A stretch of DNA of 54,684 nt from the UHGV virus genome UHGV-0199215. One strand, given 5' to 3'. Within the stretch, counting starts at the first letter, position 1. Each line of letters begins with the position of its first letter. The notes under the pieces are model-generated. The model searched no databases. It saw only the letters and a list, made by a program, of their open reading frames with translations, and was not told the DNA's origin. The position numbers and the translations under genes are program-made. This DNA is from a virus. Positions 3,858-54,684 of this stretch are shown piece after piece.

Positions 3858-3903
3858 AAGTTTAAAATAATTCTTGACACATTGCAAGCGGTCACACTAA
3901 CAT
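3858..3903 (+). promoter_or_regulatory. conserved phage promoter (UP-like TTTAAAATAATTC, -35 TTGACA)
   Basis: TTGACA at 3874-3879, 17-18 nt spacer, weak -10 CTAACA/TAACAT; member of repeated promoter family. Confidence 0.6.
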
Positions 3904-3937
3904 TTGTCACGAACGAAACACACTGAGGAATCAAACA

Positions 3938-4108
3938 ATGACTAATGAAGATGTTGCTAAACAATTGCGAAAAATCGCGGATCTGATTGATAGTGGTGAA
4001 CTTTTACCAATTCGTGTCCGTAAGAATAACGATATTTTAGGTCAAACTGGTAAACTTGAAATTGTTTTTCATTTACCCGCAAAACAAGAGGAATCAAACA
4101 ATGACTAA
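3938..4108 (+). CDS. small protein (56 aa) upstream of dUTPase
   Basis: ATG at 3938 with GAGGAA; stop overlaps the dUTPase start (ATGACTAA). Confidence 0.4.
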   Translation: MTNEDVAKQLRKIADLIDSGELLPIRVRKNNDILGQTGKLEIVFHLPAKQEESNND

Positions 4109-4604
4109 CCTGTATATCAAAAAACTAACATCCCACGCTGAACTTCCGACACGTGTAACACCAGACAGCGCCGGGTTAGACGTTCGTGCTTGCCTGTGGG
4201 AAGAATCGGTAACCATATTCACAGAATCAGGCGCTAAAGTGGAACGTCCGGTTGTTGCAGGAACAATCGCATTATGGCCCGGCGACCGCGCTATGATCCC
4301 CACTGGTCTGAAAATGTCAGTTGATAGCGGATATTGCATTAAATTATATCCACGTTCCGGCATGAGTCTTAAACACGGGCTGTCACTGATCAACTGTGTG
4401 GGTATCGGTGATCGTGATTACAAAGAAGAATACTACGTTACGCTGACTAACCACGGGCAGAAATTACAGACTATCGCAGACGGTGAACGCGTTTGTCAGC
4501 TCATGGTTGAACGTGTCGAACCTGTTAACCTGGTTGAAGTGGAAGAATTACCAGATATTGATAGTCAGCGTAATGGCGGGTTTGGATCAACAGGACGGGC
4601 GTGA
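4101..4604 (+). CDS. dut: dUTP diphosphatase (dUTPase)
   Basis: Motifs AGLDVRA, IPTG, PRSG, GIGDRDY and RNGGFGSTG match the five dUTPase motifs. Confidence 0.9.
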   Translation: MTNLYIKKLTSHAELPTRVTPDSAGLDVRACLWEESVTIFTESGAKVERPVVAGTIALWPGDRAMIPTGLKMSVDSGYCIKLYPRSGMSLKHGLSLINCVGIGDRDYKEEYYVTLTNHGQKLQTIADGERVCQLMVERVEPVNLVEVEELPDIDSQRNGGFGSTGRA

Positions 4605-4930
4605 TGAACAATCGTGATTTATTAGTCAACGCAGCACGGGCTGCTGAAATCCAGGGTAAATATTACGTCGCGTACGACGAACATTACATAAACGAAGGTA
4701 TTGATATAGGTAATGGTCGCCTGTGGAACCCTCTTACACGTAATGAGGATGCTTTCAGTCTGATGGTTAACATGTACATGGATCTGGATGTTCGTGACAA
4801 CGAAGTGACGGTTAATAACCCTGACACTGGCGTTAGTTATAAGCAACCAGTTAGCCACGGAGAAGACCGTGAAAAAGCAACGCGTTTAGCGATCGTCAAC
4901 TGTGCTGCAATTGTGGGATCGTATTTATGA
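4604..4930 (+). CDS. hypothetical protein
   Basis: ATG at 4604 overlaps the dUTPase stop (TGATG). Confidence 0.5.
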   Translation: MNNRDLLVNAARAAEIQGKYYVAYDEHYINEGIDIGNGRLWNPLTRNEDAFSLMVNMYMDLDVRDNEVTVNNPDTGVSYKQPVSHGEDREKATRLAIVNCAAIVGSYL

Positions 4931-5391
4931 AAAGTTTTTGTGAAAAACACATGCGTGATAACAGTGATCAAAAACATGGTATTTGTCCTGACTGTGTGAA
5001 TGAAAAACAACAATGGGATGGTGAAGGTTTACCACCTGTCGGTACAGTATGCGAGTGGTTAGCAAGCGTTGATCACGATTGGGTAAAGGTGACGGTATTA
5101 GGTCATCATGGTGATGATACATGGTTAAAGCCTGATGACGGTACACAATCATTTATTGTAGGTAACGCGGAAAACTTCAGACCTATTCCGAATGAACGTG
5201 AAAAGGCTATTGATGAAATGAGAAATTCGGTTACTAACTATAACAATACATCTGTTATTCACGCGATAGAGCAACTTTATGATGCTGGTTATCGTAAATT
5301 GTCAGCAATGCCCAGTTTTAAATGGCAATATTTCTGCAGTACATGTGGGCGTATAGTTGAACCAGGTCAGGAACATAATCACAGGTGCTAA
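4927..5391 (+). CDS. hypothetical Cys-rich protein with WDGxxLPPxG motif
   Basis: 154 aa; CPDC and CSTCG clusters; ATGA overlap with upstream gene. Confidence 0.5.
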   Translation: MKSFCEKHMRDNSDQKHGICPDCVNEKQQWDGEGLPPVGTVCEWLASVDHDWVKVTVLGHHGDDTWLKPDDGTQSFIVGNAENFRPIPNEREKAIDEMRNSVTNYNNTSVIHAIEQLYDAGYRKLSAMPSFKWQYFCSTCGRIVEPGQEHNHRC

Positions 5392-5393
5392 CC

Positions 5394-5642
5394 ATGACGA
5401 TATTTAAAAACGCAATGGGCGATACTGTCGCGTATCTGCCGAAAGTCATTATTGCAGATCCGTCCTGTGTTGATTACCCACACAGCAAGCAATCTGAAGC
5501 GACCTACAACGACCTGTGCGTTGATATTATGCGTGGTTGTGACATCGGTATTGAACGACTTCAGAAACTTCGGGAGGAATACGAAAAACGGTCTGTACAG
5601 GCCGCAATGGGTTTACCGACTGTCTACGACAATTTAAAATAA
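5394..5642 (+). CDS. hypothetical protein
   Basis: ATG at 5394 after AGGTG; track ORF begins at a GTG at 5385. Confidence 0.45.
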   Translation: MTIFKNAMGDTVAYLPKVIIADPSCVDYPHSKQSEATYNDLCVDIMRGCDIGIERLQKLREEYEKRSVQAAMGLPTVYDNLK

Positions 5643-5680
5643 TTCTCGACGGATTACACAAGGACGTGTAACCTACAAAC
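5636..5680 (+). promoter_or_regulatory. degenerate copy of the conserved promoter (-35 TCGACG)
   Basis: TTTAAAATAATTCTCGACGGATTACACA matches the family except T to C in the -35. Confidence 0.35.
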
Positions 5681-5704
5681 ATCAAAACAAAGGAGGACAT
5701 AATC

Positions 5705-6049
5705 ATGTCATTCACTATTTTATGGATTCTTTTCTCTCTGGTTGTCGCGGGTGTTGCCAAACAAACAGGTCGTAACCCTGGTGTATGGTTCTTTATCGCA
5801 TTTCTCACAAGTCCTGTGATCGGTGGTCTGATTTTGCTAATAGCATATCTGTTTAACGGTAAGGTCGTAAGGGGACAACCGAAAGTGGTAACCACGGGGA
5901 TGTTCAGCAATTACCTTGCAGCCTATAACTATGTCAATGAACATTACACTATTGATACTGACTACCGGGCAGAAGCAGCAAGTGACCTGTTTAAGTATGC
6001 TACCTGTCGCGAGGACTGTGATAAACTGATCTCGAAGTATGTTAACTGA
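5705..6049 (+). CDS. small membrane protein
   Basis: Strong AAGGAGGA Shine-Dalgarno; two hydrophobic helices at N-terminus. Confidence 0.55.
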   Translation: MSFTILWILFSLVVAGVAKQTGRNPGVWFFIAFLTSPVIGGLILLIAYLFNGKVVRGQPKVVTTGMFSNYLAAYNYVNEHYTIDTDYRAEAASDLFKYATCREDCDKLISKYVN

Positions 6050-6064
6050 CAGGAGAAGACTTAA

Positions 6065-6397
6065 ATGCGTTTTGAAATTCTTGAGCTTGTTAAATATGAC
6101 AAGACTGCTGCTGAAATTCTGGTTGATGCAGTTGCTGACAATGAAGTGAAATTTAAACTACTTAACAAAGTCTGGAAATACATTGTAACCACGACTATTG
6201 TTGAGCAAGCATCACAGTTTAAGGAAGTTGTCGCTGACATGTACGCGTTCACTGGCGATGATGAAGTCAAACTGCAATTGCTTGATAAAACGCTGGAACG
6301 TGCGATCAACAACAGTTATCCGTTACAGACTCGTATTCAGACTGCGATTGATGAAGCGAGTAAATTACTGTCAATCGTGCAGCCTGAAACTAAGTAA
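6065..6397 (+). CDS. hypothetical protein
   Basis: 110-aa ORF with AGGAGAAG upstream. Confidence 0.5.
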   Translation: MRFEILELVKYDKTAAEILVDAVADNEVKFKLLNKVWKYIVTTTIVEQASQFKEVVADMYAFTGDDEVKLQLLDKTLERAINNSYPLQTRIQTAIDEASKLLSIVQPETK

Positions 6398-6403
6398 AAT
6401 TAA

Positions 6404-6428
6404 GGGACCAGGAACGGTCCCTTTTTCA
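6404..6428 (+). terminator. rho-independent terminator
   Basis: gggaccaggaacggtccc hairpin followed by TTTTT. Confidence 0.7.
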
Positions 6429-7785: not shown

Positions 7786-7851
7786 GTTCTACAGGCTCCA
7801 TACGGTTTACGGTTCTTAACGTATGTTATATCAGTGATGGTTTTTTTGCAC

Positions 7852-7896
7852 GGTGTTAAAATAATTCTTGACGTATTGCAAACGTACGATTATGCT
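7852..7896 (+). promoter_or_regulatory. conserved phage promoter
   Basis: -35 TTGACG 7868-7873, 17 nt spacer, -10 TATGCT 7891-7896, upstream TTAAAATAATTC. Confidence 0.65.
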
Positions 7897-7927: not shown

Positions 7928-8239
7928 ATGAAACCGAATGAAAATATTACACAACTGGATATTGCTTTTGGACCTAAAAACATTGCTGAATTTCTCCCGG
8001 CGATGGGTAGTATTCCGAAAGAATTTTTCGAAAATTCTAACCCGTGGAATCAGTGGGTCAGCAAATGGTTTTTCAATGGTCTGAAAGAATACGCAGTTGC
8101 TGTTAACGGTGTGAACTTTAAACAGGCCCACGCGCATATCAAAGTGATCCTGGGTAGTTTCGAACCTAAACACGAACATAAAATTGCCGGGTGTGCGTAT
8201 CTCGCGTCAATGTGGTTTGTACCGGAGACACTAAAATGA
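7928..8239 (+). CDS. hypothetical protein
   Basis: ATG at 7928 after AGGGTGA. Confidence 0.5.
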   Translation: MKPNENITQLDIAFGPKNIAEFLPAMGSIPKEFFENSNPWNQWVSKWFFNGLKEYAVAVNGVNFKQAHAHIKVILGSFEPKHEHKIAGCAYLASMWFVPETLK

Positions 8240-8571
8240 AAATAAATATGGGAAACGGTAAAGTAATAATTGACGGTAGGGAATTTACAGGACGTAAATT
8301 TGAAATTAACGGTGATAAAGTAATTGTTGATGGCATACAGGTTGATGGTAATCTGGTTGGTAACATATCTATCAGTGTTTATGGTGATGTTGAATCCATT
8401 GAAACGACTAACGGTGAAGTTAACATTTCAGGAAACAGTGGAGATATCAAAACGGTTAACGGTAATGTTTCTGTTACTGGGGATAGCGGTAATATCAAAA
8501 CAGTTAATGGAAATATTACTACAAAGTCATGTACTAATTCACATTCCGTCAACGGTATCATCCGTAACTGA
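8236..8571 (+). CDS. repeat protein, bactofilin-like / beta-helix-like
   Basis: Periodic Gly/Asn/Val repeats (e.g. SGDIKTVNGNVSV, SGNIKTVNGNITT). Confidence 0.5.
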   Translation: MKINMGNGKVIIDGREFTGRKFEINGDKVIVDGIQVDGNLVGNISISVYGDVESIETTNGEVNISGNSGDIKTVNGNVSVTGDSGNIKTVNGNITTKSCTNSHSVNGIIRN

Positions 8572-8583
8572 GGAAGAATAATC

Positions 8584-8913
8584 ATGAATCATGTAAACGC
8601 TATTCGCTGTAATGATGAATATCAGTGTTCACACTGTGGTAAATCGTGGGATATCCACGAAGAAGCGCCAGATTGTAAAATGACACTGATTGAAATGGGT
8701 CTTTGTAAAACTGTAATGTATTTTGGATTGTCAGTAAGTATACCAGAAAACTATACAATTATTACTACTGATGCTGATGGTGAAGTTTATGCGTGGGAAC
8801 ACGACCCATACATTAGCGGTAGCTCATGGTATGATCCTGATATTCCGTTTATTCATATATGTAAAGTAAACCTACACGGACTGAACTGGCGGGAGACTCT
8901 AAGAAAATGTTAA
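8584..8913 (+). CDS. Cys-rich hypothetical protein
   Basis: 109 aa; CxxC pair near N-terminus; GAGGAAG upstream. Confidence 0.5.
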   Translation: MNHVNAIRCNDEYQCSHCGKSWDIHEEAPDCKMTLIEMGLCKTVMYFGLSVSIPENYTIITTDADGEVYAWEHDPYISGSSWYDPDIPFIHICKVNLHGLNWRETLRKC

Positions 8914-9068
8914 TTGGTTATGTACTGGTACTTGTTCTGCATGGTGTGGCTATTGAACCTGTGACAGAACGCATTATGACGTTCGAACAGTGTCAGGGTG
9001 CATTACAAGCTGAACAGGTTTACAACCCTGGTAAAATTTATGGGTGTGCTGAAGTTTATCGGGACTAA
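8907..9068 (+). CDS. small hydrophobic protein (53 aa)
   Basis: ATG 8907 overlaps upstream stop; hydrophobic N-terminus. Confidence 0.35.
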   Translation: MLIGYVLVLVLHGVAIEPVTERIMTFEQCQGALQAEQVYNPGKIYGCAEVYRD

Positions 9069-9073
9069 TCATT

Positions 9074-9349
9074 ATGGAATACATGTACATTGCTTTTTCA
9101 CTTCTGTTAATGATTGTTGTCGTTATTACAACTGAGAAAAAAGAACAAGGGGTGATAGGGTTAGCAGTTGCTCTGATTCGTGTTCTTTCAATCATGTTGC
9201 TGGTAACTAGTTTTTCAATTGCTTTTGATATTGTGGAATTACAAAGCGATTATTACGGTTTTGTGAAACTCCAACATCAGCTAACATACGCCGTCATATT
9301 CGGTTTAGGTTCTGTTAGTCTCGCTGTTCTTTCATCTTTCAGACGTTGA
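9074..9349 (+). CDS. small membrane protein
   Basis: 91 aa with two or three hydrophobic segments. Confidence 0.5.
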   Translation: MEYMYIAFSLLLMIVVVITTEKKEQGVIGLAVALIRVLSIMLLVTSFSIAFDIVELQSDYYGFVKLQHQLTYAVIFGLGSVSLAVLSSFRR

Positions 9350-9374
9350 AAAAAGCCCCGGAACTGTCCGGGGC
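9349..9374 (-). terminator. terminator downstream of large terminase (probably bidirectional)
   Basis: gccccggaactgtccggggc hairpin; U-run follows on the minus strand. Confidence 0.55.
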
Positions 9375-9475
9375 AAAGTCAATCAGTAAAACGTGAACGC
9401 GGAAAACTGTAATGGTACTATGAACGGACTGGTAAACCCTATAAAAACGGGCGGGAATAATCCCGCCACACTGTT

Positions 9476-11239: not shown

Positions 11240-11302
11240 GATTATCGGTCCGTTTGTAACTGTTCTGTACAGTTTACCACGGGTGACAGGTGGTAACAGA
11301 GG

Positions 11303-11344
11303 TTTAAAATAATTCTTGACAGATTACAGGCTTGCGGTTATGCT
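11303..11344 (+). promoter_or_regulatory. conserved phage promoter
   Basis: -35 TTGACA 11316-11321, 17 nt spacer, -10 TATGCT. Confidence 0.65.
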
Positions 11345-11487
11345 TTAGTTATCAAATGAACAGGGGTAGTGAATCGTGGAAGAATATACGTTTGTAATAG
11401 GCTTTATCACGGGTGCTTTAACCGTGTTCGCAGGTATATATGTTGGGTCTAAAATCAGTCGGTAAATGAACAGAGGGTTTAAAGAAG

Positions 11488-12904: not shown

Positions 12905-13111
12905 ATGTTCAGATACGTTTTAAAATTACTCGCCATCATTGCAACCTGGCTGATCATACAGTCCGGGTATGACCTTCGTGTTCGTAACCAATGCTCAGAC
13001 TATCAACGAATTACACGAACTGCGACAATCTACAGTCACGGTATTTGTTACGCCGCAGACAGTGACGGACAGTTTAAAATAATTCTTGACGGTTTACACA
13101 TCATCAGATAG
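12905..13111 (+). CDS. small membrane protein
   Basis: CAGGAG 8 nt upstream of ATG 12905; hydrophobic N-terminus. Confidence 0.4.
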   Translation: MFRYVLKLLAIIATWLIIQSGYDLRVRNQCSDYQRITRTATIYSHGICYAADSDGQFKIILDGLHIIR

Positions 13112-13114
13112 ACT
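13070..13114 (+). promoter_or_regulatory. conserved phage promoter
   Basis: -35 TTGACG 13086-13091, 17 nt, -10 TAGACT. Confidence 0.6.
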
Positions 13115-13146: not shown

Positions 13147-13413
13147 ATGTTTAAAACTGGTCAACACGTAGAAATCACCAGTCCACGACTGTTAGAAATT
13201 CTCGCACGTCGCAAATCTCAACCGTTCGGCACTGTTGTAGCGGTCGATCTGCAAGCTGAATACCCGGTTAAAGTTCGCATCACTGACGATACAGGGTTTC
13301 AAATCCCCTTCACGTTCAACGGTGAACAGTGCAATTACACTTTCTCATTTACTATGAACGGTCATCATGACCATCGTAGCCTGACACCTGATTTAAAAGT
13401 GGTGAACGTATGA
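13147..13413 (+). CDS. hypothetical protein
   Basis: ATG 13147 after GGAG. Confidence 0.45.
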   Translation: MFKTGQHVEITSPRLLEILARRKSQPFGTVVAVDLQAEYPVKVRITDDTGFQIPFTFNGEQCNYTFSFTMNGHHDHRSLTPDLKVVNV

Positions 13414-13565
13414 TCTTAGATTACATGATTAAATTATTAGGTTCCGCTAACACGTTGTGGGGTGTTCCACCACAAGGAATTATTACTGATCGTAAACAAC
13501 CACATCGTAAAACAGGTATTGCAAAAGCCCGGCGCGACGCGAAGAAAAGAAGGAACAGGAAATGA
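13410..13565 (+). CDS. small basic protein (51 aa)
   Basis: ATGA overlaps at both ends; Lys/Arg-rich C-terminus. Confidence 0.3.
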   Translation: MILDYMIKLLGSANTLWGVPPQGIITDRKQPHRKTGIAKARRDAKKRRNRK

Positions 13566-13759
13566 AACTATCAGAAGCACAAGATTATCAGCGTAGAATT
13601 TCAGACCTCATTAAACAGTTAAACTGTACGATACACGAAGCCTCAATCGTCGGAATTAATGTTGAACTTGATTTATACGAAGAACAAAAACTAAGTGGTG
13701 TAAACACTGTTGTTCTTGACGGAAAAGTTACTATCAAACCACAGGACATTGAACTATGA
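13562..13759 (+). CDS. hypothetical protein
   Basis: 65-aa ORF translationally coupled to neighbours. Confidence 0.45.
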
Positions 13760-14679
13760 ACTTCTTTAAAAACGCAATCGTTTATCGTCTGACTAATCCT
13801 ATGGTATTAATGGCCCAGTTACCAACACTGGAAGACAGTCTGTGTGCGTTTCAATTCAATCCGTGCGGTTCACAGGATATGGCACGTACTGGTTGGGTTC
13901 CGGCAACTGAACAACATCATACACTGGTTCACCAGGCTAACGGGCAATATTTGCTGACCATCCAGAAACAGGAAAAGATTATTCCGGGTCCGGTCATTAA
14001 ACAGCATCTGAACGCGCGAATCGCCAAACTGGAAGCTGAACAGGCGCGTAAACTGAAGAAAACAGAGAAAGATAGCCTGAAAGATGAAGTATTGCACAGT
14101 CTGTTACCACGAGCATTCGTTAAAAACAGTCGTACACAGTTGTGGATTGATATCACTAGCGGGTTGATCGTGGTTGATGCGTCCAGTGCTAAACGGGCTG
14201 AAGATGCATTAGCACTGTTGCGTAAATCCCTGGGTAGTCTGCCAGTCGTCCCGCTGACGATGGAAAACCCTGTTGAACTGACAGCAACGGAGTGGGTACG
14301 TTCAGGAAACGCACCAGCAGGTTTTACAATGGGTGACGCTGCTGAACTGAAAGCGATCCTGACTGACGGTGGTGTTGCACGCGTTAAAAAACAGGATTTA
14401 ACCAGTGACGAAATAGCCACGCATATTGAAGCCGGGAAAGTTGTTACAAAACTGGCGTTGGACTGGCAGCAGCGGGTAACGTTTACGCTAACTGACAGTA
14501 TGACATTAAACCGTGTGAAGTTCTGCGATGAACTGGTGTTACAGAATGACGATATTGAACGTGAAGATATGTTAGCCCGGTTCGACGCTGATTTTGTACT
14601 AATGACAGGTGAACTTCAGGCGCTGATCAAACAACTTATCACTGCTTTGGGTGGGGAGGCGAAACGTACAAGTTACTGA
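13756..14679 (+). CDS. rdgC: recombination-associated protein RdgC homologue
   Basis: 307 aa; N-terminus [12 protein letters not shown] resembles E. coli RdgC (MLWFKNLMVYRL) and length matches. Confidence 0.75.
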
Positions 14680-14687
14680 AACAAAGT

Positions 14688-14728
14688 TTAAAATAATTCT
14701 TGACGGATTACACAGGGAAGTGTAAATT
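14688..14728 (+). promoter_or_regulatory. conserved phage promoter
   Basis: -35 TTGACG 14700-14705, 17 nt, -10 TAAATT. Confidence 0.6.
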
Positions 14729-14763: not shown

Positions 14764-14937
14764 ATGACTAAATCTAAGATGAAAAAAGTGCTGAAAACCT
14801 GGATGGAAAACTACAACTGTTCTCTGGAAGATGCTGTTATCATCGCTCACAAAAACCACCCGTCACTTTCCGCAGTTATCGCCAGCGCTGAAATGGATCT
14901 AATGGTTGAAGGTTTATTGAATGCTGCTGGAATCTGA
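14764..14937 (+). CDS. hypothetical protein
   Basis: ATG 14764 after GAGGAA. Confidence 0.45.
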   Translation: MTKSKMKKVLKTWMENYNCSLEDAVIIAHKNHPSLSAVIASAEMDLMVEGLLNAAGI

Positions 14938-15184
14938 AAAACAAGCCGTCGCCCTATTTGAAAAAATGGGGCGTTTTTACGTTGAACAACGACTGAATGA
15001 AATTAGTGATTCAGCTACTGAACGTTATAACAATTGCCGTGATATTCCTGGTGGTTGGTGTGTGATTGATTTTATGACACCAGATGAACTATCAGAACGT
15101 CACATATTGTTATTGGCTTTGACACTATGTACCGATCCGGTTAACGAAGCACGACAAAGAATTTTGCAGAGACGTTTAAAATAA
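14921..15184 (+). CDS. hypothetical protein
   Basis: 87-aa ORF; 3' end overlaps the next promoter. Confidence 0.45.
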   Translation: MLLESEKQAVALFEKMGRFYVEQRLNEISDSATERYNNCRDIPGGWCVIDFMTPDELSERHILLLALTLCTDPVNEARQRILQRRLK

Positions 15185-15217
15185 TTCTTGACGGATTACA
15201 CTGTTTTACCCTATAAT
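15172..15217 (+). promoter_or_regulatory. conserved phage promoter
   Basis: -35 TTGACG 15188-15193, consensus -10 TATAAT at 15212-15217. Confidence 0.7.
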
Positions 15218-15252: not shown

Positions 15253-15441
15253 ATGAAAAACTTCGAAACTAAAGCAGAGTGTGAAAAATATATCGTAGCT
15301 GAATATGGTGAATGTGCTTTTCAGGTCGGTGTAATTTTCGCTTATCGTGTAAAACCAATCGAAGCAAAAATGTTTGGTTTGGTTGAAGGTTCTTATATGT
15401 CCAGTAACGAATTTGATGAAGCAACAGGGTACGGTCGTTAA
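15253..15441 (+). CDS. hypothetical protein
   Basis: Initiation region GGAACTGGAAAATGA duplicated from the 14764 gene. Confidence 0.45.
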   Translation: MKNFETKAECEKYIVAEYGECAFQVGVIFAYRVKPIEAKMFGLVEGSYMSSNEFDEATGYGR

Positions 15442-15647
15442 TGAATTATATTCCAAAATGCCTTCGTGAAATACCGAAGGTAAAACAAAAACCCCGTAAA
15501 CAAGCGATAAAAGAAGCGAAAATTGAGGCTTTCAATATCGCCATTTCTATAATCAACGATAAATGTCGTATCGAAAAATCTGATCGCATGAAATCAAACA
15601 TGTTTTCAGCAATGAGCGAAATAGCGATTTTACGTGATAAGCTCTAA
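15441..15647 (+). CDS. hypothetical protein
   Basis: 68-aa ORF, ATG overlaps upstream stop. Confidence 0.45.
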   Translation: MNYIPKCLREIPKVKQKPRKQAIKEAKIEAFNIAISIINDKCRIEKSDRMKSNMFSAMSEIAILRDKL

Positions 15648-16892: not shown

Positions 16893-16908
16893 TAAAGCAC
16901 GTTATGAT
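16880..16908 (+). promoter_or_regulatory. sigma70-like promoter overlapped by operator repeats
   Basis: TTGCAC, 17 nt spacer, TATGAT. Confidence 0.5.
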
Positions 16909-16939
16909 TTACCCGTGGTTAAATAAGAAGGGTGTGATA

Positions 16940-17653
16940 ATGAAAAAGAACCTTTTAGACGAATTGATAGATTTAAAAGGCGGGGTACAAAATGCTGTTG
17001 AATACCTTAATCGTCGAGGTGTTAAGGTAACCATTGGTCGTTACAACCAATGGTTAAGCGGTAGGTTTCATCCTAAATATGAAACGATCAGTATTATTCT
17101 TGAAGAGATTACTGACTTCACACTGTCACCTTCGCCAGTACAACATTCTGACGAAAACATTGTTCTTAAACACACAATACCGGTTACCGAACTGCGTCAG
17201 AAATTACCATACAGGCGTTTTGCTAATAACTACTGGCAACGTGTCAGATACGTTGATTCACAGATCCTGGAAGCTGTTCACGGTCACGACGTGTGGGCAC
17301 GGTTTGAGGCGATGTGCGGTAATTTTGAATGTGCAAGATACGTGTTACGCAGGAATTTAAACGAACACACCGTTACTGACAGTTGGATTCAGAATGGTTT
17401 GCGCCGGGGCTGGATCCCAGAATGTGTAAACGTGATGGTCGATTTGCTTGAAAAATACGAAGGCACCGGAACACCGTTTAACGTGATGGTTTGTGAAGCA
17501 CCTGTAGCACGAGTGGAAGCACCTGTAGTCGATGTCAGCGATTTGAAGGAGAAAATCAGACTGTATGCGTTATCACACAACCCGCATTGCGATGTAGATA
17601 ATATGCCGGACGATGTTGTTTTGATGATGTATAAAGATATGATGGGTCAATAA
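16940..17653 (+). CDS. putative DNA-binding regulator
   Basis: ATG 16940 after AAGGGTG; N-terminal HTH-like segment; directly downstream of the operator array. Confidence 0.5.
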   Translation: MKKNLLDELIDLKGGVQNAVEYLNRRGVKVTIGRYNQWLSGRFHPKYETISIILEEITDFTLSPSPVQHSDENIVLKHTIPVTELRQKLPYRRFANNYWQRVRYVDSQILEAVHGHDVWARFEAMCGNFECARYVLRRNLNEHTVTDSWIQNGLRRGWIPECVNVMVDLLEKYEGTGTPFNVMVCEAPVARVEAPVVDVSDLKEKIRLYALSHNPHCDVDNMPDDVVLMMYKDMMGQ

Positions 17654-20895: not shown

Positions 20896-21084
20896 CTAGT
20901 CTCCTTTAGTGCGCAGGTGGTTTTTCCAGCGGTTTTGCGCCGCGCTGGGCTTTTTGCAAAAACCACAATCCATCATCCCGTAATATTTTATTAACCCCAT
21001 TCGTCGGTTGCTGAGTCTCACCCACTGCCAGACGCCGGGACCGTTTCTACGAACTAACAGAATCTTTGCTTTACGGTTTTTCAT
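20896..21084 (-). CDS. hypothetical protein
   Basis: 62-aa ORF with CGFC pair. Confidence 0.45.
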   Translation of the reverse strand: MKNRKAKILLVRRNGPGVWQWVRLSNRRMGLIKYYGMMDCGFCKKPSAAQNRWKNHLRTKGD

Positions 21085-21848
21085 AACCGGTGCTCCTTCA
21101 GTGCTTTTAACGCTTCAAACTGTTCAGCAGTAAGTTCAACCAGGACTTTACCACCTTCCTGGCGGGTTGCAGACCATTCACCACGGATTGCTTCCACTGC
21201 AGACCGTACCAGTTTAGCGGGTGGACGACGCGTGACTACAGGTTCTTTATCACCTGCTTTAAACTGGCGAATGGCTGCTGATGCGCTGATTTCACCATTC
21301 TGGATCCGGCGTTTAAGTTCCAGCGGCATATCAAGAATATTCAGTTGTTCGTAAACGTGCTGAACGGTTTTACCGACCTGTGTAGCGATCTGCTCAACAC
21401 TCATGCCATATGAACGGAAACGACCGTAAATAACAGCACGTTCAACAGGGGACCACGGTTTACCTTCATTACCTTTTAACAGTGTCAGGGTCTGTTGTAG
21501 TTCGTCACCGGACGATTCAACAACATCTACTGTCAGAATCGGCGTCCCGGCTTCAATAGCTGCCAATACGCCACGTAAACGATGCTCACCATCCTGGACA
21601 TACGGAACACCGTCAACAACCTGTACCACGATGGGTGGAACGAAATCGCCGTTGGTATAAGCCTGACGAAAGTTTTCAATGTGTGCCAGTGCTGCTTCAG
21701 TTTCCCAGTAGTTGTCGGTAAACACACCGCGTGGGTTATGTCCTGGACGAATCTTGATAATACGCGGATCAATGCGATATGCGTTACCACGTTTTACGTT
21801 GGTTTTATCGGTATCAGACAGCTTGCGAAGGGAGTTAATGTTAGCCAT
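21081..21848 (-). CDS. ParB-like nuclease domain protein
   Basis: 255 aa; ParB/sulfiredoxin-type N-terminal region plus HTH (SVEQIATQVGKTVQHVYEQL). Confidence 0.7.
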   Translation of the reverse strand: MANINSLRKLSDTDKTNVKRGNAYRIDPRIIKIRPGHNPRGVFTDNYWETEAALAHIENFRQAYTNGDFVPPIVVQVVDGVPYVQDGEHRLRGVLAAIEAGTPILTVDVVESSGDELQQTLTLLKGNEGKPWSPVERAVIYGRFRSYGMSVEQIATQVGKTVQHVYEQLNILDMPLELKRRIQNGEISASAAIRQFKAGDKEPVVTRRPPAKLVRSAVEAIRGEWSATRQEGGKVLVELTAEQFEALKALKEHRL

Positions 21849-21882: not shown

Positions 21883-21924
21883 ATTATCGGGGAGGTTTGG
21901 TAATCTGTCAAGAATTATTTTAAG
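21883..21924 (-). promoter_or_regulatory. conserved phage promoter (minus strand)
   Basis: Reverse complement gives AAAATAATTCTTGACA, 17 nt spacer, -10 GATAAT. Confidence 0.6.
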
Positions 21925-22315
21925 GATATGGAACCCACACAGTTAAACCAGCTTTCAACATGCGACGATGCATATCAGCAGTACCACGCCCACCGGGGAA
22001 CACAACACCGTATGTAGGACGTGGCTCACCCTCTAACATCGCCTGATTACGTTGATGACCTGCAACAGCGTTATAAGCCCCGTGCTTACCCTGTTTTACA
22101 ACCGCACCAGGTACAGTCAGATCGTCCCACGCTGCCGGGCAACTACGCACAGGAATACCGTGTAATTGCGCCCATTGCTTACACAGGTTATCAACACCTG
22201 ACGCACCACCTTCAATTAGTTCGGTAACCGGAAATTGTTTGTGAAGTAGTCCTAACGCGGAAAACACTGCTGTTCTGTCGTTAAAGTCACGACCACCTGT
22301 GACGACAATTATCAT
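21920..22315 (-). CDS. DUF2493-like (SLOG / Rossmann-fold) protein
   Basis: VVTGGRDF...GGASGVD...VFPGGRGT pattern. Confidence 0.55.
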   Translation of the reverse strand: MIIVVTGGRDFNDRTAVFSALGLLHKQFPVTELIEGGASGVDNLCKQWAQLHGIPVRSCPAAWDDLTVPGAVVKQGKHGAYNAVAGHQRNQAMLEGEPRPTYGVVFPGGRGTADMHRRMLKAGLTVWVPYP

Positions 22316-22992
22316 TGTTTATTAGCCTCAAATACAGCGCGAGCAAAACCACGCGGGGTTAATGAACGTAACTGTTTAGTTGTTTCAGACTTACCACCCA
22401 GATATTTCCAGCCCCAGAAGAAACCAATATTAATCGGTCCAGGACGTTTTTCAGGCATTCTGAAACCGTTACCGAACCACAGACATGTTTTCTTCGTGTA
22501 TCCGTCAAACATCGGCATTTTAGGGTGAAAAGGTTTATCATCTGTTGTCATATAACCGCCATATTCCCACGGATGAAAATAAGCGTCAGGTGTCCCCATC
22601 ATTTCAGGACGTGATAAAGCACCGACAGGGTTTTCGACCATCCAGGGTACATCATAACGTTCTCCAAGTTCCCGGATTAGTTTTGCGTTTGCCAGTGCAT
22701 ACTGTAGTTCAGCGTCATCCCGGTCATGTTGTGAACCGCTTTGAGCAAACAGGGTGCAATCCGGGAAACCAAAAATAATCGACGGTAAAGGTGTTCCCAG
22801 TATTTCCTGCTTAATTGCAAATTGTGGGTCAATCCACTGATTAACGTAATGAAGATTGGGGTGATCAGCTTTAATAAAATATTCCCCGTGATTAGCGGAA
22901 TCAGCATTAAAACAATAAACCTGATAACCATGTATCGCCCACGGTAAACCCATAATCCCGGAACCGTCGAACAATGACCAGACAATTTTCAT
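22312..22992 (-). CDS. DNA (cytosine-5)-methyltransferase-like protein
   Basis: Motif I LFDGSG, motif IV-like FPDCTLFAQSG, motif VI ENPVG, C-terminal RSLTPRGFARA. Confidence 0.55.
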   Translation of the reverse strand: MKIVWSLFDGSGIMGLPWAIHGYQVYCFNADSANHGEYFIKADHPNLHYVNQWIDPQFAIKQEILGTPLPSIIFGFPDCTLFAQSGSQHDRDDAELQYALANAKLIRELGERYDVPWMVENPVGALSRPEMMGTPDAYFHPWEYGGYMTTDDKPFHPKMPMFDGYTKKTCLWFGNGFRMPEKRPGPINIGFFWGWKYLGGKSETTKQLRSLTPRGFARAVFEANKQ

Positions 22993-23204
22993 CCTTCTGT
23001 CTCCTCGACGATCCTCGTGATTTTAACCGGCGCGATTGTTACTTTTCTGCAATTGAAACCTTGATCACGAAGTGCTTTAAGTGCAACACCAGCCATGTAA
23101 GTTGAACTGAACAGAGTAGCTTCACTGATATCAACCCAGGTAATCCGGGTATCAATATGTGCATAACGGTCTTCTTTTTTGATTACAGCACCGAATTCAG
23201 TCAT
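22989..23204 (-). CDS. hypothetical protein
   Basis: 71-aa ORF. Confidence 0.45.
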   Translation of the reverse strand: MTEFGAVIKKEDRYAHIDTRITWVDISEATLFSSTYMAGVALKALRDQGFNCRKVTIAPVKITRIVEETEG

Positions 23205-23439: not shown

Positions 23440-23468
23440 ATCTGTAATTCGTCAAGAATTATTTTACA
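23426..23468 (-). promoter_or_regulatory. conserved phage promoter (minus strand)
   Basis: Reverse complement gives TAAAATAATTCTTGACG, then -10 TATAGT. Confidence 0.6.
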
Positions 23469-33552: not shown

Positions 33553-33591
33553 ACCGTATAGAATTATTTAAAACTTATTGAGGCGATAACA

Positions 33592-36598: not shown

Positions 36599-36918
36599 TG
36601 CTTACTCCCGGTTTTACGTTGTTCCGCTTTTAAACCTTCAATAACAACTTTCAGGTCATTTGTTGACTGTGTTAGCTCTTTAACACTAGTGAGGATTTCA
36701 GCGTTCTGTGTTGCCTGATATTCAATTTTGATGTCGTGAACATCCACTCGGGATTCCACTCGCTTTGCCAGATTAAGCGCCTCGTGTGCATAGGTTTTTG
36801 CATCTGCAATATCTTTTTCATTAGAATTGATTTGGTTTTGAGTTACCCCGTAACCTACCAACCCTGTAGCAACAAATGCTATTATAGGCCAATACCTCAA
36901 CACTGGGTTATCAGACAT
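36595..36918 (-). CDS. lysis-associated membrane protein (holin or antiholin candidate)
   Basis: One N-terminal transmembrane helix then coiled coil; heads the lysis cassette. Confidence 0.45.
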   Translation of the reverse strand: MSDNPVLRYWPIIAFVATGLVGYGVTQNQINSNEKDIADAKTYAHEALNLAKRVESRVDVHDIKIEYQATQNAEILTSVKELTQSTNDLKVVIEGLKAEQRKTGSKQ

Positions 36919-36944: not shown

Positions 36945-38933
36945 ATGGCTAACTGTAATGATTATATCAGTGCTGATGATTTGAAAACAGGCAAACAAGC
37001 GATTTTACATATCGAACACGTTGCGAAAAGTCGTGATGATAACGGTAACCCCGCACTGGAAGTAACAGATATCATCCGTGGTGAATCAGTTACTAACCCT
37101 ACGCTAGATGGTTTTTTTAGTTCGGTAGGTTTTAAACCTGCAGACGGTTCATTTGAAGACGGTGGTACGATTAATCATCGCTGGGAAACTTTATTATATA
37201 AAGCAGAAGGTAATTACTATCAATGGATGGGTGTACTACCTAAAGTTGTTCCTGCCGGTTCAACACCTGCGACTACGGGTGGTGTTGATGTTACACACTG
37301 GGTAAATCAAAGTGATTTAACATTACGAAACGATCTTAAATCTAATAAAGGCAGTTCAATAGTAACGTCGGCGTCTGGGGTTTCTGCGCAAAGATTGGCA
37401 TCCGGGTATAATTTCATAGGGCTGTCAACATCAGAAAATGTGATTAATAGTAATATTGACGCAATAAAAGACCCGGCAACTGGACTGTTTTGGGTATATG
37501 AAGGTGCTGTTTCGTCACCATTAATTGTCCCTGCAGGTACTGTTCCTCCCGAGCAACCATTGGCAAGGTACACGTCTACTAATTGGCGGTGTGTAGGACT
37601 ACTTGACGGCTATAAGGAGACAAACGCTAAAAATTACGGTGCTAAATGTGATGGGGTAACTGATGATTATTACGCCTATCAGTTGGCGCTGTACCACACT
37701 AAAAGTCACGTAACCCATATTGGCGACGCACGAATTGCCACAGCTACGCTCATTAAACCAGTTGGAGTGAGCATTGTTGGTGCATCTGGGTACGTAGGTG
37801 CGCAGCTTGGTAATAATCTTCCATTTACTACTTTTACGTTCGACGGTCCTTACGGTAAAGACACGTACGCTATCGATAACGGTGAAAGTGCTGGAACTGA
37901 AGATTCGGGACGCATTCAGTATGTATATCTCCGTGCGATCAATGACTCTAAGGATAATCTTAACGCAGTTAAATTGACCAAGGCCGGGCAGTTGATGGAT
38001 TGCGGGATTTTAAATTTCTGGAACGGTGTTAAATACGATGGGGGAAGCGCCTACGTACAAATCCACAGAAATAATATTAACTCCTGCAACTGCTGCATTG
38101 ATGCAGCTGGAAGTGAGTCACATATCACCAATAACCACGGGTATAATGACAGCATACGTACTTCTGCACAGTTCAGACCTGCTATTCTTATCAGAAGTGC
38201 TGGTAACATCGTTACTGAGAATAAATTCTTTGGCGACGGGGCAAATACCCCAAAAGGAGTAGAGATATGGGGTCCGGGTAATGTGGTGGCAAATAACGTT
38301 TTTGACGCTTTTACCGACATTGGGATCCTGATAACCTGCAATGACGCCTCTGTCCTGCCTGATAATAATTTAATATCAGGAAACCTGATTACGGGGATTG
38401 GTGATTCGTCTGATACGGCTAATACATTCCGAGCAGGAGTAGTGGTAAGCAATTCTGGTGCGGGGGCCGGGACTATAACAGGAACTGTTGTATATGGAAA
38501 TAGTATGTATAACAAAAGAACAGACCGACAGATGCAGTATGGAGTAGTGATAAATGCGATATCTGGTTCTTTTCCTGATTCACGGACCATATACAACACT
38601 TTGATTACGGGCAACACTTTCGGATTCGGGATTACCGGGCGGAAGGTGATTGCTCTTGGGGCTAACCATTCAGGAAGCAGAAGTAACAATAACTCCGGCG
38701 TTATTACTGAAGCAATTGGGAGTGGTACGTATTCAAACGGAGCAGTGATACAACATGGAATGTCAAGACCACCAGAATTTATAGAGTTCACACTTATAGA
38801 TTCTGGAAATCCAGTTGCTATTTCATTCTCTGCGGTAACTGATACAACATTTACTATTATGATCAGAGATTCTTCTGGAGGGATAAGCGGAACCCGTGCT
38901 GTTGCATGGAAAGCATCAAGATTAACGCCTTAA
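36945..38933 (+). CDS. tail fibre / tailspike with beta-helix-like domain
   Basis: ATG 36945 after GGAGA; Gly/Asn/Thr-rich repetitive C-terminal half; convergent with tail genes. Confidence 0.65.
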   Translation: MANCNDYISADDLKTGKQAILHIEHVAKSRDDNGNPALEVTDIIRGESVTNPTLDGFFSSVGFKPADGSFEDGGTINHRWETLLYKAEGNYYQWMGVLPKVVPAGSTPATTGGVDVTHWVNQSDLTLRNDLKSNKGSSIVTSASGVSAQRLASGYNFIGLSTSENVINSNIDAIKDPATGLFWVYEGAVSSPLIVPAGTVPPEQPLARYTSTNWRCVGLLDGYKETNAKNYGAKCDGVTDDYYAYQLALYHTKSHVTHIGDARIATATLIKPVGVSIVGASGYVGAQLGNNLPFTTFTFDGPYGKDTYAIDNGESAGTEDSGRIQYVYLRAINDSKDNLNAVKLTKAGQLMDCGILNFWNGVKYDGGSAYVQIHRNNINSCNCCIDAAGSESHITNNHGYNDSIRTSAQFRPAILIRSAGNIVTENKFFGDGANTPKGVEIWGPGNVVANNVFDAFTDIGILITCNDASVLPDNNLISGNLITGIGDSSDTANTFRAGVVVSNSGAGAGTITGTVVYGNSMYNKRTDRQMQYGVVINAISGSFPDSRTIYNTLITGNTFGFGITGRKVIALGANHSGSRSNNNSGVITEAIGSGTYSNGAVIQHGMSRPPEFIEFTLIDSGNPVAISFSAVTDTTFTIMIRDSSGGISGTRAVAWKASRLTP

Positions 38934-45760: not shown

Positions 45761-45831
45761 GTTGGTTAACCTTTTCGTGAAGCATGTACACAGTTTAACA
45801 CGTTAACCATAATATATGAAAAAGCCCGGAA

Positions 45832-53537: not shown

Positions 53538-53947
53538 TATTCCACATCCTCATAATATGCAGTTCCGCCAATGGAATATCCAGTATATTCACCAGTCTGA
53601 AACTTTTTCAAAACTTCGTCATCAGTTATCAACGTGCCAACAATGACGCCTGTCTGATCCAGTTTATCAACCAGACCAAAACTTGCCGCAATGTCTTCAG
53701 TCATCGGGAACGCAAACACAACTTTCCCAACAGGTTGTTCATTGTGCATATTGTCCATGATGCGCTGATCAGAATTCATGAAGTCCATCCATGCTTTCAG
53801 GGTGACATCCTCGGGAAATTGCTCGTTGTCCGTGTCTGTGTAAATTTCTAACTGACCTGTCTCCTGATTACGTTTTTTACAGATGCTACCCCAACCGAAT
53901 ACCATACGTAGTGAGTTGTCAACCTTATTAACTTTTACGTTAATCAC
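53537..53947 (-). CDS. hypothetical head-module protein
   Basis: 136 aa; position between MuF-like gene (across window join) and scaffold. Confidence 0.4.
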   Translation of the reverse strand: MINVKVNKVDNSLRMVFGWGSICKKRNQETGQLEIYTDTDNEQFPEDVTLKAWMDFMNSDQRIMDNMHNEQPVGKVVFAFPMTEDIAASFGLVDKLDQTGVIVGTLITDDEVLKKFQTGEYTGYSIGGTAYYEDVE

Positions 53948-54291
53948 GGGGATTGTCCTCGTATTGTTTCAACATGACTAAATTCTAACATTTCGGATGA
54001 ATAATTGCACTGGTGATACACGCTGTTTACAACGTTACCGAATATCTCAGAAAGATTCTTGATCGGTTCAACAGCAGTCGTTACTGGTTCAACAGCAGTC
54101 GTTACTGGTTCAACACCGTCCAGATGTTCAGCGACAACCTGGAAAAACACTGTGTTAGTTTCACGGTCAATAATAACCACTGTGCTGGAACTATCTTCAA
54201 CAATGCTGAATGAGTAGTCGTAACGATCACCGTGAACTTTACGGGCGCGACGAATGAATTCGTCTGTAGCAACTCTGATGTTCGGATCCAT
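53944..54291 (-). CDS. small protein with homing-endonuclease-like N-terminal motif and internal tandem repeat
   Basis: KVHGDRYDYS...VVAEHLDG motif; VEPVTTAVEPVTTAVEP repeat; ATG 54291 after AGAAGGG. Confidence 0.4.
   Translation of the reverse strand: MDPNIRVATDEFIRRARKVHGDRYDYSFSIVEDSSSTVVIIDRETNTVFFQVVAEHLDGVEPVTTAVEPVTTAVEPIKNLSEIFGNVVNSVYHQCNYSSEMLEFSHVETIRGQSP
54065..54120. repeat. 21-bp tandem repeat, about 2.6 copies
   Basis: ggttcaacagcagtcgttact repeated at 54065, 54086 and partially at 54107. Confidence 0.85.
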
Positions 54292-54321
54292 ACCTTCAAC
54301 CCTTCTTGTTTTCTTGACCAC

Positions 54322-54362
54322 AGGGTAGTTGTGTCGATGTAATCCGTCAAGAATTATTTTAC
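54322..54362 (-). promoter_or_regulatory. conserved phage promoter (minus strand), weak -10
   Basis: Reverse complement gives TAAAATAATTCTTGACGG; -10 region poor. Confidence 0.5.
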
Positions 54363-54456
54363 GTATAGATTCATGAGAAGTATGCGACTCCCTATACCTT
54401 TTAAACCTCTTCTACTTACAACGACTTTTACTACTTATACCACTCTTCTATTTATT

Positions 54457-54543
54457 TATGTTTTCTATGTCATCTATAAAAAGATAATAAAAAGAATAAG
54501 ATAGAGAGGGGTTGGTCAAAAAATAAACATGACGAAATCTATG
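54457..54543. repeat. 87-bp conserved intergenic element, copy B
   Basis: About 93 percent identical to 16685..16771. Confidence 0.7.
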
Positions 54544-54557
54544 AATCTATGATCTAC

Positions 54558-54643
54558 TAATACAGAACGTGTATTAGCTGCAACTCAAAATCATGAAACC
54601 TATGTAAAACCATGTGTAGCTAATACAGAACGTGTATTAGCTA
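54558..54643. promoter_or_regulatory. two palindromic operator-like sites
   Basis: TAATACAGAACGTGTATTA at 54558-54576 and TAGCTAATACAGAACGTGTATTAGCTA at 54617-54643. Confidence 0.5.
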
Positions 54644-54647
54644 TATC

Positions 54648-54684
54648 TTTAAAATAATTCTTGACGAATTACAGACGGTAGGGT
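54648..54684 (+). promoter_or_regulatory. conserved phage promoter, truncated by window end
   Basis: CTTTAAAATAATTCTTGACGAATTACAG; -10 lies beyond the window. Confidence 0.55.

Follow-up and report, generated by a model that had tools for sequence, protein, structure and literature searches.

Thirteen near-identical predicted early promoters built on a 26-bp module in the genome of a 9NA-like siphophage

The virus genome UHGV-0199215, a stretch of 54,684 nucleotides (nt) that was analyzed over its whole length (hereafter the window), carries 13 copies of a 26-bp sequence, termed the module, in which a -35 promoter hexamer is embedded between strongly conserved flanks. The question raised by these copies is what reads them, why they are uniform well beyond the -35 hexamer, and how they serve a genome in which small genes on one strand are interleaved with virion genes on the other. 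Judged from the sequence, the 13 elements are probably early/middle promoters of a virulent 9NA-like siphophage read by the host sigma70 holoenzyme. Virulent phages are well known to have sets of near-identical early promoters preceded by A/T-rich DNA, and the family is regarded as a further case of this known kind, in a little-studied clade. Three features stand out, i.e., an invariant box in the spacer, an A/T block common to early and late units, and a socket-like exchange of the genes behind the promoter.

The best matches of the window were the Escherichia coli phages PDP46, PJ16 and Bas82, the Salmonella phages Sasha and 9NA, and related Klebsiella phages; the matches form a mosaic. By this similarity the window is the complete genome of a 9NA-like siphophage (Nonanavirus/Sashavirus), and the phage is a virulent 9NA-like phage of E. 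coli. Bas82 has sequence spanning the junction from 54684 to 1 (the same joined sequence is found at Bas82 13419-), and because both window ends join in relatives in this way, the window is taken to be a whole, circularly permuted genome. The IMG/VR contig L143 has the same set of promoter copies as the window, including a private TCGAC variant of the -35. The molecular lifestyle of 9NA-like phages has been little studied (PMC4153490, PMC11990801). No promoters are annotated in the public records opened (9NA, Sasha, PDP46, PJ16, Bas82, Carvaje, Isfahan and 13VV501A); the Sasha record annotates ribosome-binding sites and terminators, yet no promoters. A literature search for 9NA, Sashavirus, 9NA-like phages and the motif, the coverage of which did not extend to Zeng et al. 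2019 (PMC6819911), yielded no promoter description.

The minus strand holds the virion genes (TerS, TerL, portal, a gp29-33-like block and a head-tail operon). Interleaved between them are plus-strand cassettes of small genes, nearly all of unknown function, each with a module at its start and a hairpin terminator at the convergent junction as its end. A bidirectional terminator hairpin at 6402..6423 (both strands) closes a cassette at the convergent junction with the portal gene, and two terminator hairpins at 9355-9374 and 9450-9467 (9355..9467, both strands) lie at the convergent junction of an early cassette with TerL.

Copies, anatomy and conservation of the module

The consensus TTTAAAATAATTCTTGAC-RN-ATTRCA was found 13 times in the window by a pattern search with the 26-mer TTTAAAATAATTCTTGACRGATTACA (up to 3 mismatches allowed), compared with 0.00 expected copies in 100 dinucleotide-preserving shuffles, which bears out the roughly 13 near-identical promoters reported in a preliminary description of this DNA. 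In a scan with a weight matrix derived from the module copies, the 13 copies scored 38 to 45 bits, the next two sites 21.7 and 18.0 bits and all others 9.4 bits or less, i.e., the score distribution is bimodal; the maximum score in 20 shuffled genomes was 13.5 bits. The modules start at 3861, 5633, 7855, 11303, 13073, 14687, 15175, 28755, 28819 and 54648 on the plus strand and occupy 21899-21924, 23443-23468 and 54338-54363 on the minus strand. Their edges are sharp, the information content being about 0 directly beyond either end of the 26 bp, and the module provides the most repeated 11-mer of the genome. The plus-strand positions in the preliminary description lie within 3 nt of those from the pattern search, and its minus-strand positions (21883, 23426 and 54322) are right when taken as the -10 end, which is the low-coordinate end of the whole promoter. 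Regarding the two copies described there as degenerate, the one at 5636 is a true member (module start 5633) with a single T to C change in the -35, its orthologues being mostly TTGAC, and the one at 50422 is not a member (0.9 bits) and corresponds to a separate TTGACA-17-TATTGT site.

Each promoter consists of the A/T block TTTAAAATAATT followed by C (about -48 to -36, with the block at -48 to -37), the -35 hexamer TTGACR (-35 to -30; 12 of the 13 copies, with TCGACG in the remaining one), a variable base, usually G (-29), the spacer box ATTRCA (-28 to -23), 10-11 free bases and a -10 hexamer of the form (T/G)AnnnT. The latter follows the -35 at 17 nt in nine copies and 18 nt in four, in agreement with the 17-18 nt noted before. 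The -10 hexamers (TAACAT, TATGCT, TAGACT, TAAATT, TATAAT, GATAAT, TATAGT, TAAAGT, TACCCT, TAACCT and TATCTT) are weak and diverse, with a mean of 4.2 matches to the six consensus positions, so upstream contacts would be important. A TGn extension before the -10 is found neither in the window copies nor in any of 81 unique contexts from seven genomes. The sequence AAAATAATT at -45 to -37 matches the proximal UP subsite consensus, reportedly given by Estrem et al. in 1999 as AAAAAARNR at -46 to -38, at six of nine positions with a shift of 1 nt.

All 13 copies point the same way as the next gene, the start codon of which is about 75 nt downstream. They are either intergenic or placed where the preceding open reading frame (ORF) has its 3' edge. 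The leader between -10 and gene is short and of uniform length; of the 12 units, 11 have their ribosome-binding site and start codon 31-36 nt past the -10. Four copies are arranged serially within one co-directional cluster (11303, 13073, 14687 and 15175), and those at 28755 and 28819 form a tandem pair. No hairpin is common to the 13 module regions, the folding z-scores of which ranged from -2.95 to +2.85, most being near 0. The uniform orientation, the TTGACR-17/18-TAnnnT core, the placement of the ribosome-binding sites and start codons, and the orthologous copies in relatives together support the earlier identification of the elements as promoters.

Conservation was determined on the 81 unique module contexts of the seven genomes. 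Positions 4-18 are essentially invariant, with zero substitutions at positions 5-9 and 11-14, and ATTRCA is nearly invariant; positions 19, 20 and 24 vary freely. The T, G, A and C of the -35 are kept in 79 to 81 of the 81 contexts, the -10 hexamers have a mean of 4.0 of six consensus matches, and the spacer is mostly 17 nt long (59 contexts), the remaining contexts having 18 nt (19) or 16 nt (three). The relatives keep module copies at orthologous positions, with 10 copies each in 9NA and Sasha, 12 in PJ16, 13 in PDP46, 14 in Bas82, 9-11 in Klebsiella phage Carvaje and 5-9 in each of the IMG/VR relatives (partial loci).

The motif search proposed earlier, extended across the genome and its relatives, thus gave the 13 copies in the window and further copies throughout the 9NA-like clade. 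A 32-mer search of a phage collection gave multi-copy matches only in this clade (9-13 per complete genome), and the Vibrio relative 13VV501A (capsid protein 52% identical) has no module, with 0 matches above 12 bits. On this distribution the 26-bp module is a hallmark of the 9NA-like clade. Proteus phage Isfahan (capsid protein 61% identical) carries a coherent variant, TTTAAAATAT(A/G)GCTTGACAGATTRCA, with ATT replaced by TAG or TGG at positions 10-12 in all copies; since the IMG/VR relatives found have portal identities of either at least 84% or at most 42%, the Proteus group is the sole intermediate lineage. In 596 Gb of bacterial and archaeal genomes (185,579 species) the strict pattern AAAATAATTCTTGACNNATTRCA gave four single matches, about the number expected by chance; none was in an E. 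coli, Salmonella, Klebsiella or Proteus genome, and one was in Yersinia pekkanenii. A site of a host transcription-factor regulon was rejected on this chance-level occurrence. A mobile element, tRNA or known RNA was also rejected, as no tRNAs and no Rfam family were found.

A second promoter class and the back-to-back geometry

When the upstream regions of late genes were aligned across the seven genomes, short boxes stayed conserved before the genes while their flanks diverged. The box of the head-morphogenesis gene, TGATATAAT (2563..2571, minus strand), has the form of an extended -10 with no -35, lies 31 nt before the ATG at 2532 and is kept in relatives. That of the portal gene, TGATATAACAT (7823..7833, minus strand; also written TGATATAAC/TAACAT), consists of TG-A-TATAAC overlapping TAACAT and is kept in seven genomes. 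The TerL box TGGTAAACT (11271..11279, minus strand), an extended -10 that reads (CCC)GTGGTAAACT across genomes, ends 32 nt before the TerL ATG at 11239. The tape-measure box TGTTAAACT (45792..45800, minus strand; GTGTTAAACT across genomes) likewise lies 32 nt before its gene (45760). The lysis cassette has a second TGATATAAT (36961..36969, minus strand; holin ATG at 36918), located within the 5'-terminal part of the divergent tailspike gene, and the tailspike gene itself (ATG at 36945) is preceded by TGCTATTAT (36877..36885, plus strand), which is TGTTATAAT in PDP46 and Sasha. A head-operon (gp37) box, TGATAT(C/T)AT, was seen in 9NA, Sasha and Carvaje. Most of these boxes carry the TGn of extended -10 promoters (TGnTAtAAT-like), and by eye no good -35 hexamer was found at the lysis and head-morphogenesis boxes. 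The genome seems, from these alignments, to hold two promoter classes, an early class dependent on -35 and upstream contacts and a late class that is -35-independent.

Modules divergent from a late virion gene have, on the opposite strand, a -10-like hexamer that starts 25-27 nt past their 5' edge. In the window the TAACAT of the portal box and the hexamer of the TerL box each start 26 nt past the edge of their divergent modules (7855 and 11303, respectively). Regarding the other genomes, the offset is 25-26 nt at TerL in every genome with a module there (6 of 7, PJ16 being without), 26 nt at the portal gene in all seven, 27 nt at the tail chaperone gene in five genomes (the window is without that cassette), 25 nt at the tape-measure gene in PJ16 and Bas82, and 26 nt in all five units of Isfahan that set a module back-to-back with a late gene, where the hexamer is TATAAT in four and TATACT in one. 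The offset holds though the intervening sequence differs completely between lineages. None of the co-directional copies in the seven enterobacterial-phage genomes has a hexamer at 25-27 nt, and the background chance of such a hexamer within the 3-position window is 0.06-0.10 per locus. In back-to-back units the A/T block thus occupies -37 to -48 of the early promoter and -39 to -50 as counted from the late -10; because the late -10 starts 25-27 nt past it, the block is at UP-element distance from both promoters and would be a central, shared, UP-like element of these units.

Two other candidates for the late signal were rejected. The reverse strand of the module could supply a late -10 as AAGAAT or TGTAAT; the former is without -35 and TG, and the latter lacks the A at position 2; the conserved late boxes lie farther downstream. 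The motifs ACCCGTGGKWA and CNGTGRTAWA, considered as a late-promoter box, are present on both strands inside genes. As observations in their own right, CNGTG(A/G/T)TA(A/T)A(A/C/T)N occurs 19 times versus 2.4 expected (e.g., 11271-11282 and 44787-44798 on the minus strand, 42819-42830 and 18913-18924 on the plus strand), and ACCCGTGGKWA (at most 1 mismatch) 24 times versus 3.4 expected. Both are mostly intragenic; the TerL late box belongs to both motifs, and the tape-measure box is similar.

Candidate readers of the module

In the favored reading, the unmodified host sigma70 holoenzyme would be recruited by sigma region 4 on the consensus -35 and by the alpha C-terminal domain on the A/T block, used as a UP-like proximal subsite, with the individual -10 tuning the strength of each promoter. 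The preliminary description had suggested an extra recognition determinant, either an alpha-subunit UP element or a phage factor; at the sequence level the former is upheld, and the UP-like role gains independent positional support because the A/T block is equidistant from the late -10 on the other strand. Since no polymerase gene is evident, the first transcripts of the infecting genome are expected to be made by the host polymerase. All early units would fire at infection with a shared dependence on -35/UP contacts, driving the small opposite-strand accessory cassettes together with nucleotide-metabolism and replication genes, and the late blocks (head morphogenesis, TerL, portal, tape measure, lysis and tailspike, and the head operon in relatives) would use the -35-less boxes. 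The polymerase footprints of back-to-back promoters would overlap, and occupancy of the two would therefore be mutually exclusive. Any agent weakening initiation that depends on -35 and UP contacts, or occluding the module, could then cause an early-to-late shift, e.g., a factor acting against sigma region 4 or a protein bound to the module. Sensitivity to factors acting on sigma region 4, such as T4 AsiA and gp39 of Thermus phage P23-45, is a property of -35-dependent promoters and not of extended -10 promoters.

This reading would explain how opposite-strand cassettes interleaved among virion genes can be expressed and exchanged. It provides a testable transcription map of the whole genome, in which the 13 early units stand beside late genes with -35-less boxes of their own, some of the two being set back-to-back on a common A/T block, and it presents the module as a compact and probably strong promoter part with a modular -10. 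The invariant spacer box and the dichotomy of -35-dependent and -35-independent promoters predict that a switch factor directed at the polymerase is to be sought among the clade-core proteins to which no function is assigned.

Several points weigh against the host sigma70 reading. A UP element needs A/T richness only, which leaves unexplained the A/T positions with zero substitutions and the invariant ATTRCA at -28 to -23, a spacer region that, to our knowledge, neither sigma70 nor alpha reads; the A-tract is also 1 nt off the UP consensus. The gp29-like block and the helicase operon, although divergent partners of modules, break the 25-27 nt rule. Generic TGnTAnWMT sites are not over-represented genome-wide (41 versus 42 expected), so the late class is defined by position and conservation, not by counts. 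The Pfam and PHROGs scans of about 50 ORFs gave no switch factor, and the literature covered (Zeng et al. 2019 excepted) holds no transcription start or timing data for 9NA-like phages. Finally, two further module copies, not listed in the preliminary description, keep the flanks and lack the -35, i.e., the flanks may act independently of the -35.

These two copies are TTTAAAATATTTCTATGCAGATTACC at 27022..27047 (plus strand), antisense within the 41 bp that separate the helicase gene from the exonuclease gene, and TTTTAAATAATTCTATACGGTTTACC at 33548..33573 (minus strand), antisense in a 39-bp gap behind the DNA polymerase gene. Both thus sit in gaps of about 40 bp in replication operons, with TATGC and TATAC, respectively, in place of TTGAC, and both positions are kept in all six enterobacterial relatives. 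The 33548 copy is identical at 26 of 26 nt in 9NA, Carvaje, PDP46, PJ16, Bas82 and Sasha, whereas the adjoining coding DNA differs. Read on the sense (minus) strand, the 27022 copy contains the extended -10 box TGGTAATCT (27048..27040) 33 nt before the exonuclease ATG at 27007, and may instead represent an inverted module that forms a promoter for the sense strand.

The invariant flanks, the coherent Proteus variant and the -35-less copies suggest an additional reader, the alternative being strong concerted evolution. It is accordingly conceivable, if rather unlikely, that the flanks (TKTAA...N16...TTACA) are the operator of a phage protein, or of a phage-modified polymerase, that binds every early promoter at once; the bound protein would shut the early promoters and may free or activate the late promoter in back-to-back units, which is compatible with the sites being sigma70 promoters. 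The invariance goes well beyond the needs of sigma70 plus alpha, a variant shared by all Proteus copies is expected of co-evolution between a site and its reader, two positionally conserved copies hold the flanks without a -35, and the motif is not that of a host regulon. Five clade-core proteins of unknown function co-occur with it, and several small ones are encoded by every genome with the motif, Isfahan included, and went undetected in the Vibrio relative, which lacks the motif. Against this reading, concerted evolution through recombination could also yield a lineage-coherent variant, and the -35-less copies may instead be taken as promoter or leader elements of the sense strand. Dyad symmetry, judged by eye, is confined to the outer 4-5 bp (T(T/G)TAA...TTACA, 21 bp centre to centre), the inner positions being unpaired. 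The Pfam and PHROGs scans, which covered about 50 early and core ORFs, gave no assignable regulator; the only DNA-binding candidates were Xis/RDF-like and ParB-HTH proteins, neither of which is linked to the motif. The AlphaFold2 model of a 77-aa core protein (pLDDT 80) had no PDB match (best E = 2.4), i.e., no match to a known fold. As side observations, this protein is 65% identical in the Proteus phage, a value above that of the polymerase, and the small clade-core proteins are encoded at 35285-35518 (plus strand), 25843-26016 (minus strand) and 8584-8913 (plus strand); further clade-core candidates for a polymerase-directed factor are encoded at 33592..34128 and 28893..29663 (both plus strand).

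A bolder form of the same thought, which must be called unlikely, is a two-way switch in which a factor of the 9NA-like clade reads the A/T block and ATTRCA, silences all early promoters together and, since the A/T block is common to both, hands the polymerase to the back-to-back late ones. Such a factor might bind DNA itself, or it might modify sigma region 4 or the alpha C-terminal domain. If true, coliphages amenable to laboratory culture (Bas82, 9NA) would have an early-to-late switch of a new kind.

The host sigma70 reading resembles, in part, several known systems. As in UP-element sigma70 promoters of the rrnB P1 type, an A-tract block lies directly upstream of a consensus -35 and the -10 is weak; unlike them, the module sequence is invariant and not merely A/T rich, its A-tract is shifted by 1 nt and it has the extra ATTRCA box. 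The Thermus phages phiYS40 and P23-45 use early promoters with -35 and -10 elements versus extended -10 middle and late promoters, with gp39 and gp76 as factors, and the T4 AsiA system is comparable. The early class here is likewise -35-dependent, the late class is -35-less and often has TGn, and there is no phage polymerase; unlike those programmes, no anti-sigma or polymerase-binding protein was identified among the window ORFs scanned. We know of no A/T block common to back-to-back early and late units in the Thermus phage or T4 AsiA systems.

The morons of lambdoid phages are autonomous promoter-gene-terminator units inserted between late genes. The cassettes of the window resemble them as self-contained units with their own promoter and terminator between virion genes and with a gene content that varies between relatives, and differ in having one common promoter module, in being on the opposite strand and presumably early, and in belonging to a virulent phage rather than coming from a prophage. 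Vibrio phage 13VV501A has the same interleaved architecture, and the conserved promoter of its late blocks (..TGTCAAC-N10-CCGTGRTATACT) is back-to-back with a divergent TTGACA promoter. Unlike the module phages, it has neither an A/T block nor the 26-bp module, and its two promoters share their -35 region. In this phage the late family reads GTTACAcccTGTCAAC-N10-CCGTG(A/G)TATACT versus TTGACA-N18-TAGTAT on the other strand, with late promoters, e.g., at 7796, 19204, 21365, 22335, 25369 and 28921 (plus strand).

Cassette exchange and the promoter-leader socket

Clustering of 84 module copies by their 44-nt leaders gave about 12 promoter-leader classes. For 8 of the 12, the first gene behind one and the same promoter and leader is unrelated between genomes or between loci, which agrees with the route for cassette shuffling envisaged in the preliminary description; at times the first three codons (MTN.. 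or MAN..) are common to differing cargo genes. The leader 'tatgctttag..atcaaatgaac' precedes five different genes, and the leader 'caaggacgtgtaacctacaa' is found before a membrane-protein gene beside the portal gene and also in a superinfection-immunity cassette between tail genes (PJ16 and Bas82). The module with its leader is read as a constant socket with swappable cargo, and homologous exchange at this socket would swap the genes behind it.

The same data raise the possibility that the module is conserved mainly as a substrate of recombination, with exchange and gene conversion homogenizing 26 bp where promoter activity alone would tolerate more variation; we consider this improbable. Besides the shared leaders at differing genes and the identical promoter-leader units at non-syntenic loci, it can draw on the boundaries of homology blocks, 29 of which lie within 40 bp of a module versus 5.5 expected under a uniform null, on the module junctions, which are breakpoints in at least one comparison in 10 of 10 cases, and on a Gp2.5-like annealing protein and an exonuclease encoded by the phage. 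Against it, 49 of the 75 gene junctions without a module are breakpoints as well (Fisher p = 0.03), and because gene junctions in general are breakpoints the enrichment is modest. Conversion tracts would not produce the same sharp edges in more than 100 copies, and the free positions 19, 20 and 24 inside an otherwise invariant block look like position-specific selection.

The promoter-early stem-loop (PeSL) cassettes of T4-type phages (Arbiol et al. 2010, PMC2839356; Comeau et al. 2014, PMC4122927) are a known example of such a substrate. Like them, the module elements precede small genes of unknown function in variable regions, and exchanges there would shuffle the genes behind. Membership was rejected because the module has no associated stem-loop or terminator, the stem-loop being what defines PeSLs (PMC2839356). 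In further contrast to PeSLs, the module belongs to a siphovirus, has 13 copies versus about 50 and a far more uniform core, and its cassettes alternate with virion genes that lie on the other strand, with terminators at the far ends of the cassettes. A phage-encoded sigma factor or RNA polymerase, instead of host sigma70, as the reader of the sites is extremely improbable, as the unusual invariance of the extended motif is the sole point in its favor, the core is a textbook TTGACR-17/18-TAnnnT, and no RNA polymerase or sigma gene is annotated in the relatives or present among the ORFs scanned.

The individual early promoters assigned under the host sigma70 reading are numbered 1 to 13 by position, and the genes given for each are those that it is predicted to drive. 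Promoter 1 (3861..3903, plus strand; module TTTAAAATAATTCTTGACACATTGCA, 18-nt spacer, -10 TAACAT) precedes 3938..5391 (a 56-aa ORF, dUTPase and others) and is back-to-back with the gp29-like gene starting at 3830 on the minus strand. Promoter 2 (5633..5674, plus strand; TCGACG, 17 nt, TAACCT) is inside a co-directional cluster and precedes 5705..6397. Its -35 (5646-5651) is TCGACG in the window and in contig L143, with TTGACG in the orthologues of PDP46 and PJ16 and TTGATG in that of Bas82, and may be a private down-mutation. Promoter 3 (7855..7896, plus strand; TTGACG, 17 nt, TATGCT) precedes 7928..9349 and is back-to-back with the portal late promoter. Promoter 4 (11303..11344, plus strand; TTGACA, 17 nt, TATGCT), back-to-back with the TerL late promoter, precedes a 29-aa ORF (11376..11465) and the genes following it.

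Promoter 5 (13073..13114, plus strand; TTGACG, 17 nt, TAGACT), a tandem copy inside the co-directional cluster, precedes 13147..14679, including an RdgC-like gene. It is followed by promoter 6 (14687..14728, plus strand; TTGACG, 17 nt, TAAATT) before 14764..15184 and promoter 7 (15175..15217, plus strand; TTGACG, 18 nt, TATAAT) before 15253..15647. The minus-strand modules 21899- and 23443- serve a ParB-like/methylase/HD-domain early region. Promoter 8 (21883..21924, minus strand; TTGACA, 17 nt, GATAAT) precedes the ParB-like gene 21848..21081 and downstream small genes, and promoter 9 (23426..23468, minus strand; TTGACG, 18 nt, TATAGT) precedes 23394..21920, which comprises a lipoprotein-like gene, a C5 methylase and a SLOG protein.

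The replication operon 28893..35518 is preceded by the tandem pair, consisting of promoter 10 (28755..28797, plus strand; AAAATAGTTCTTGACG, 18 nt, TAACAT) upstream and promoter 11 (28819..28860, plus strand; TTGACA, 17 nt, TAAAGT) downstream, with the start codon at 28893. Promoter 12 (54322..54363, minus strand; TTGACG, 17 nt, TACCCT) precedes an extra DUF723-like gene (start about 54291) before the head operon. Both promoter and gene are present in PDP46, PJ16 and Bas82; 9NA, Sasha and Carvaje have no promoter copy at this position, and tblastn matches to the gene are at most 26-30%. Promoter 13 (54648..54684, plus strand; TTGACG, 17 nt), the -10 of which (TATCTT) runs across the window end (54684 plus bases 1-5), precedes 52..1506.

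The leader of promoter 8 (21850-21880, minus strand) holds the hairpin AGCCTCAGTTAACACACATGAGGCT. A near reverse-complement of this hairpin, with a T-run, is located at 2538-2561 (minus strand), between the late box TGATATAAT and the start codon of the head-morphogenesis gene.

In five relatives the tail-tube gene is separated from the chaperone gene by a cassette consisting of a module and a small gene on the opposite strand, four or five different cargo genes being represented among them (modules, e.g., at PDP46 25536, 9NA 24417 and Carvaje 24000, all on the minus strand). It is absent in the window and in PJ16; at the corresponding place the window (46551-46655) has a terminator hairpin only, plus a weak motif-like remnant at 46582 (2.0 bits, under the shuffle maximum).

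Within the head-tail operon, about 500 nt at 49925-50449 (minus strand) are non-coding and are preceded by the TTGACA-17-TATTGT site. This region, possibly a structured RNA, folds much better than shuffled sequence (z = -4.2) and has no Rfam match and no tRNA; the matching region of Klebsiella phage Carvaje contains a tRNA-Ser.

Arrays of palindromes of about 19 bp, TAAT(A/G)CAC-AAC-GTG(C/T)ATTA, were found at 16440-16910 and 54557-54643. At least six lie in the 400-bp non-coding region between TerS and the ORF 16904..17653, and two adjoin promoter 13 at 54648. In 9NA and Carvaje, different repeats are located beside the homologue of the ORF 16904..17653, which is only 37-45% identical. The array looks like a set of iterons or operators that co-varies with its protein, which would be that of a replication origin or a regulator.

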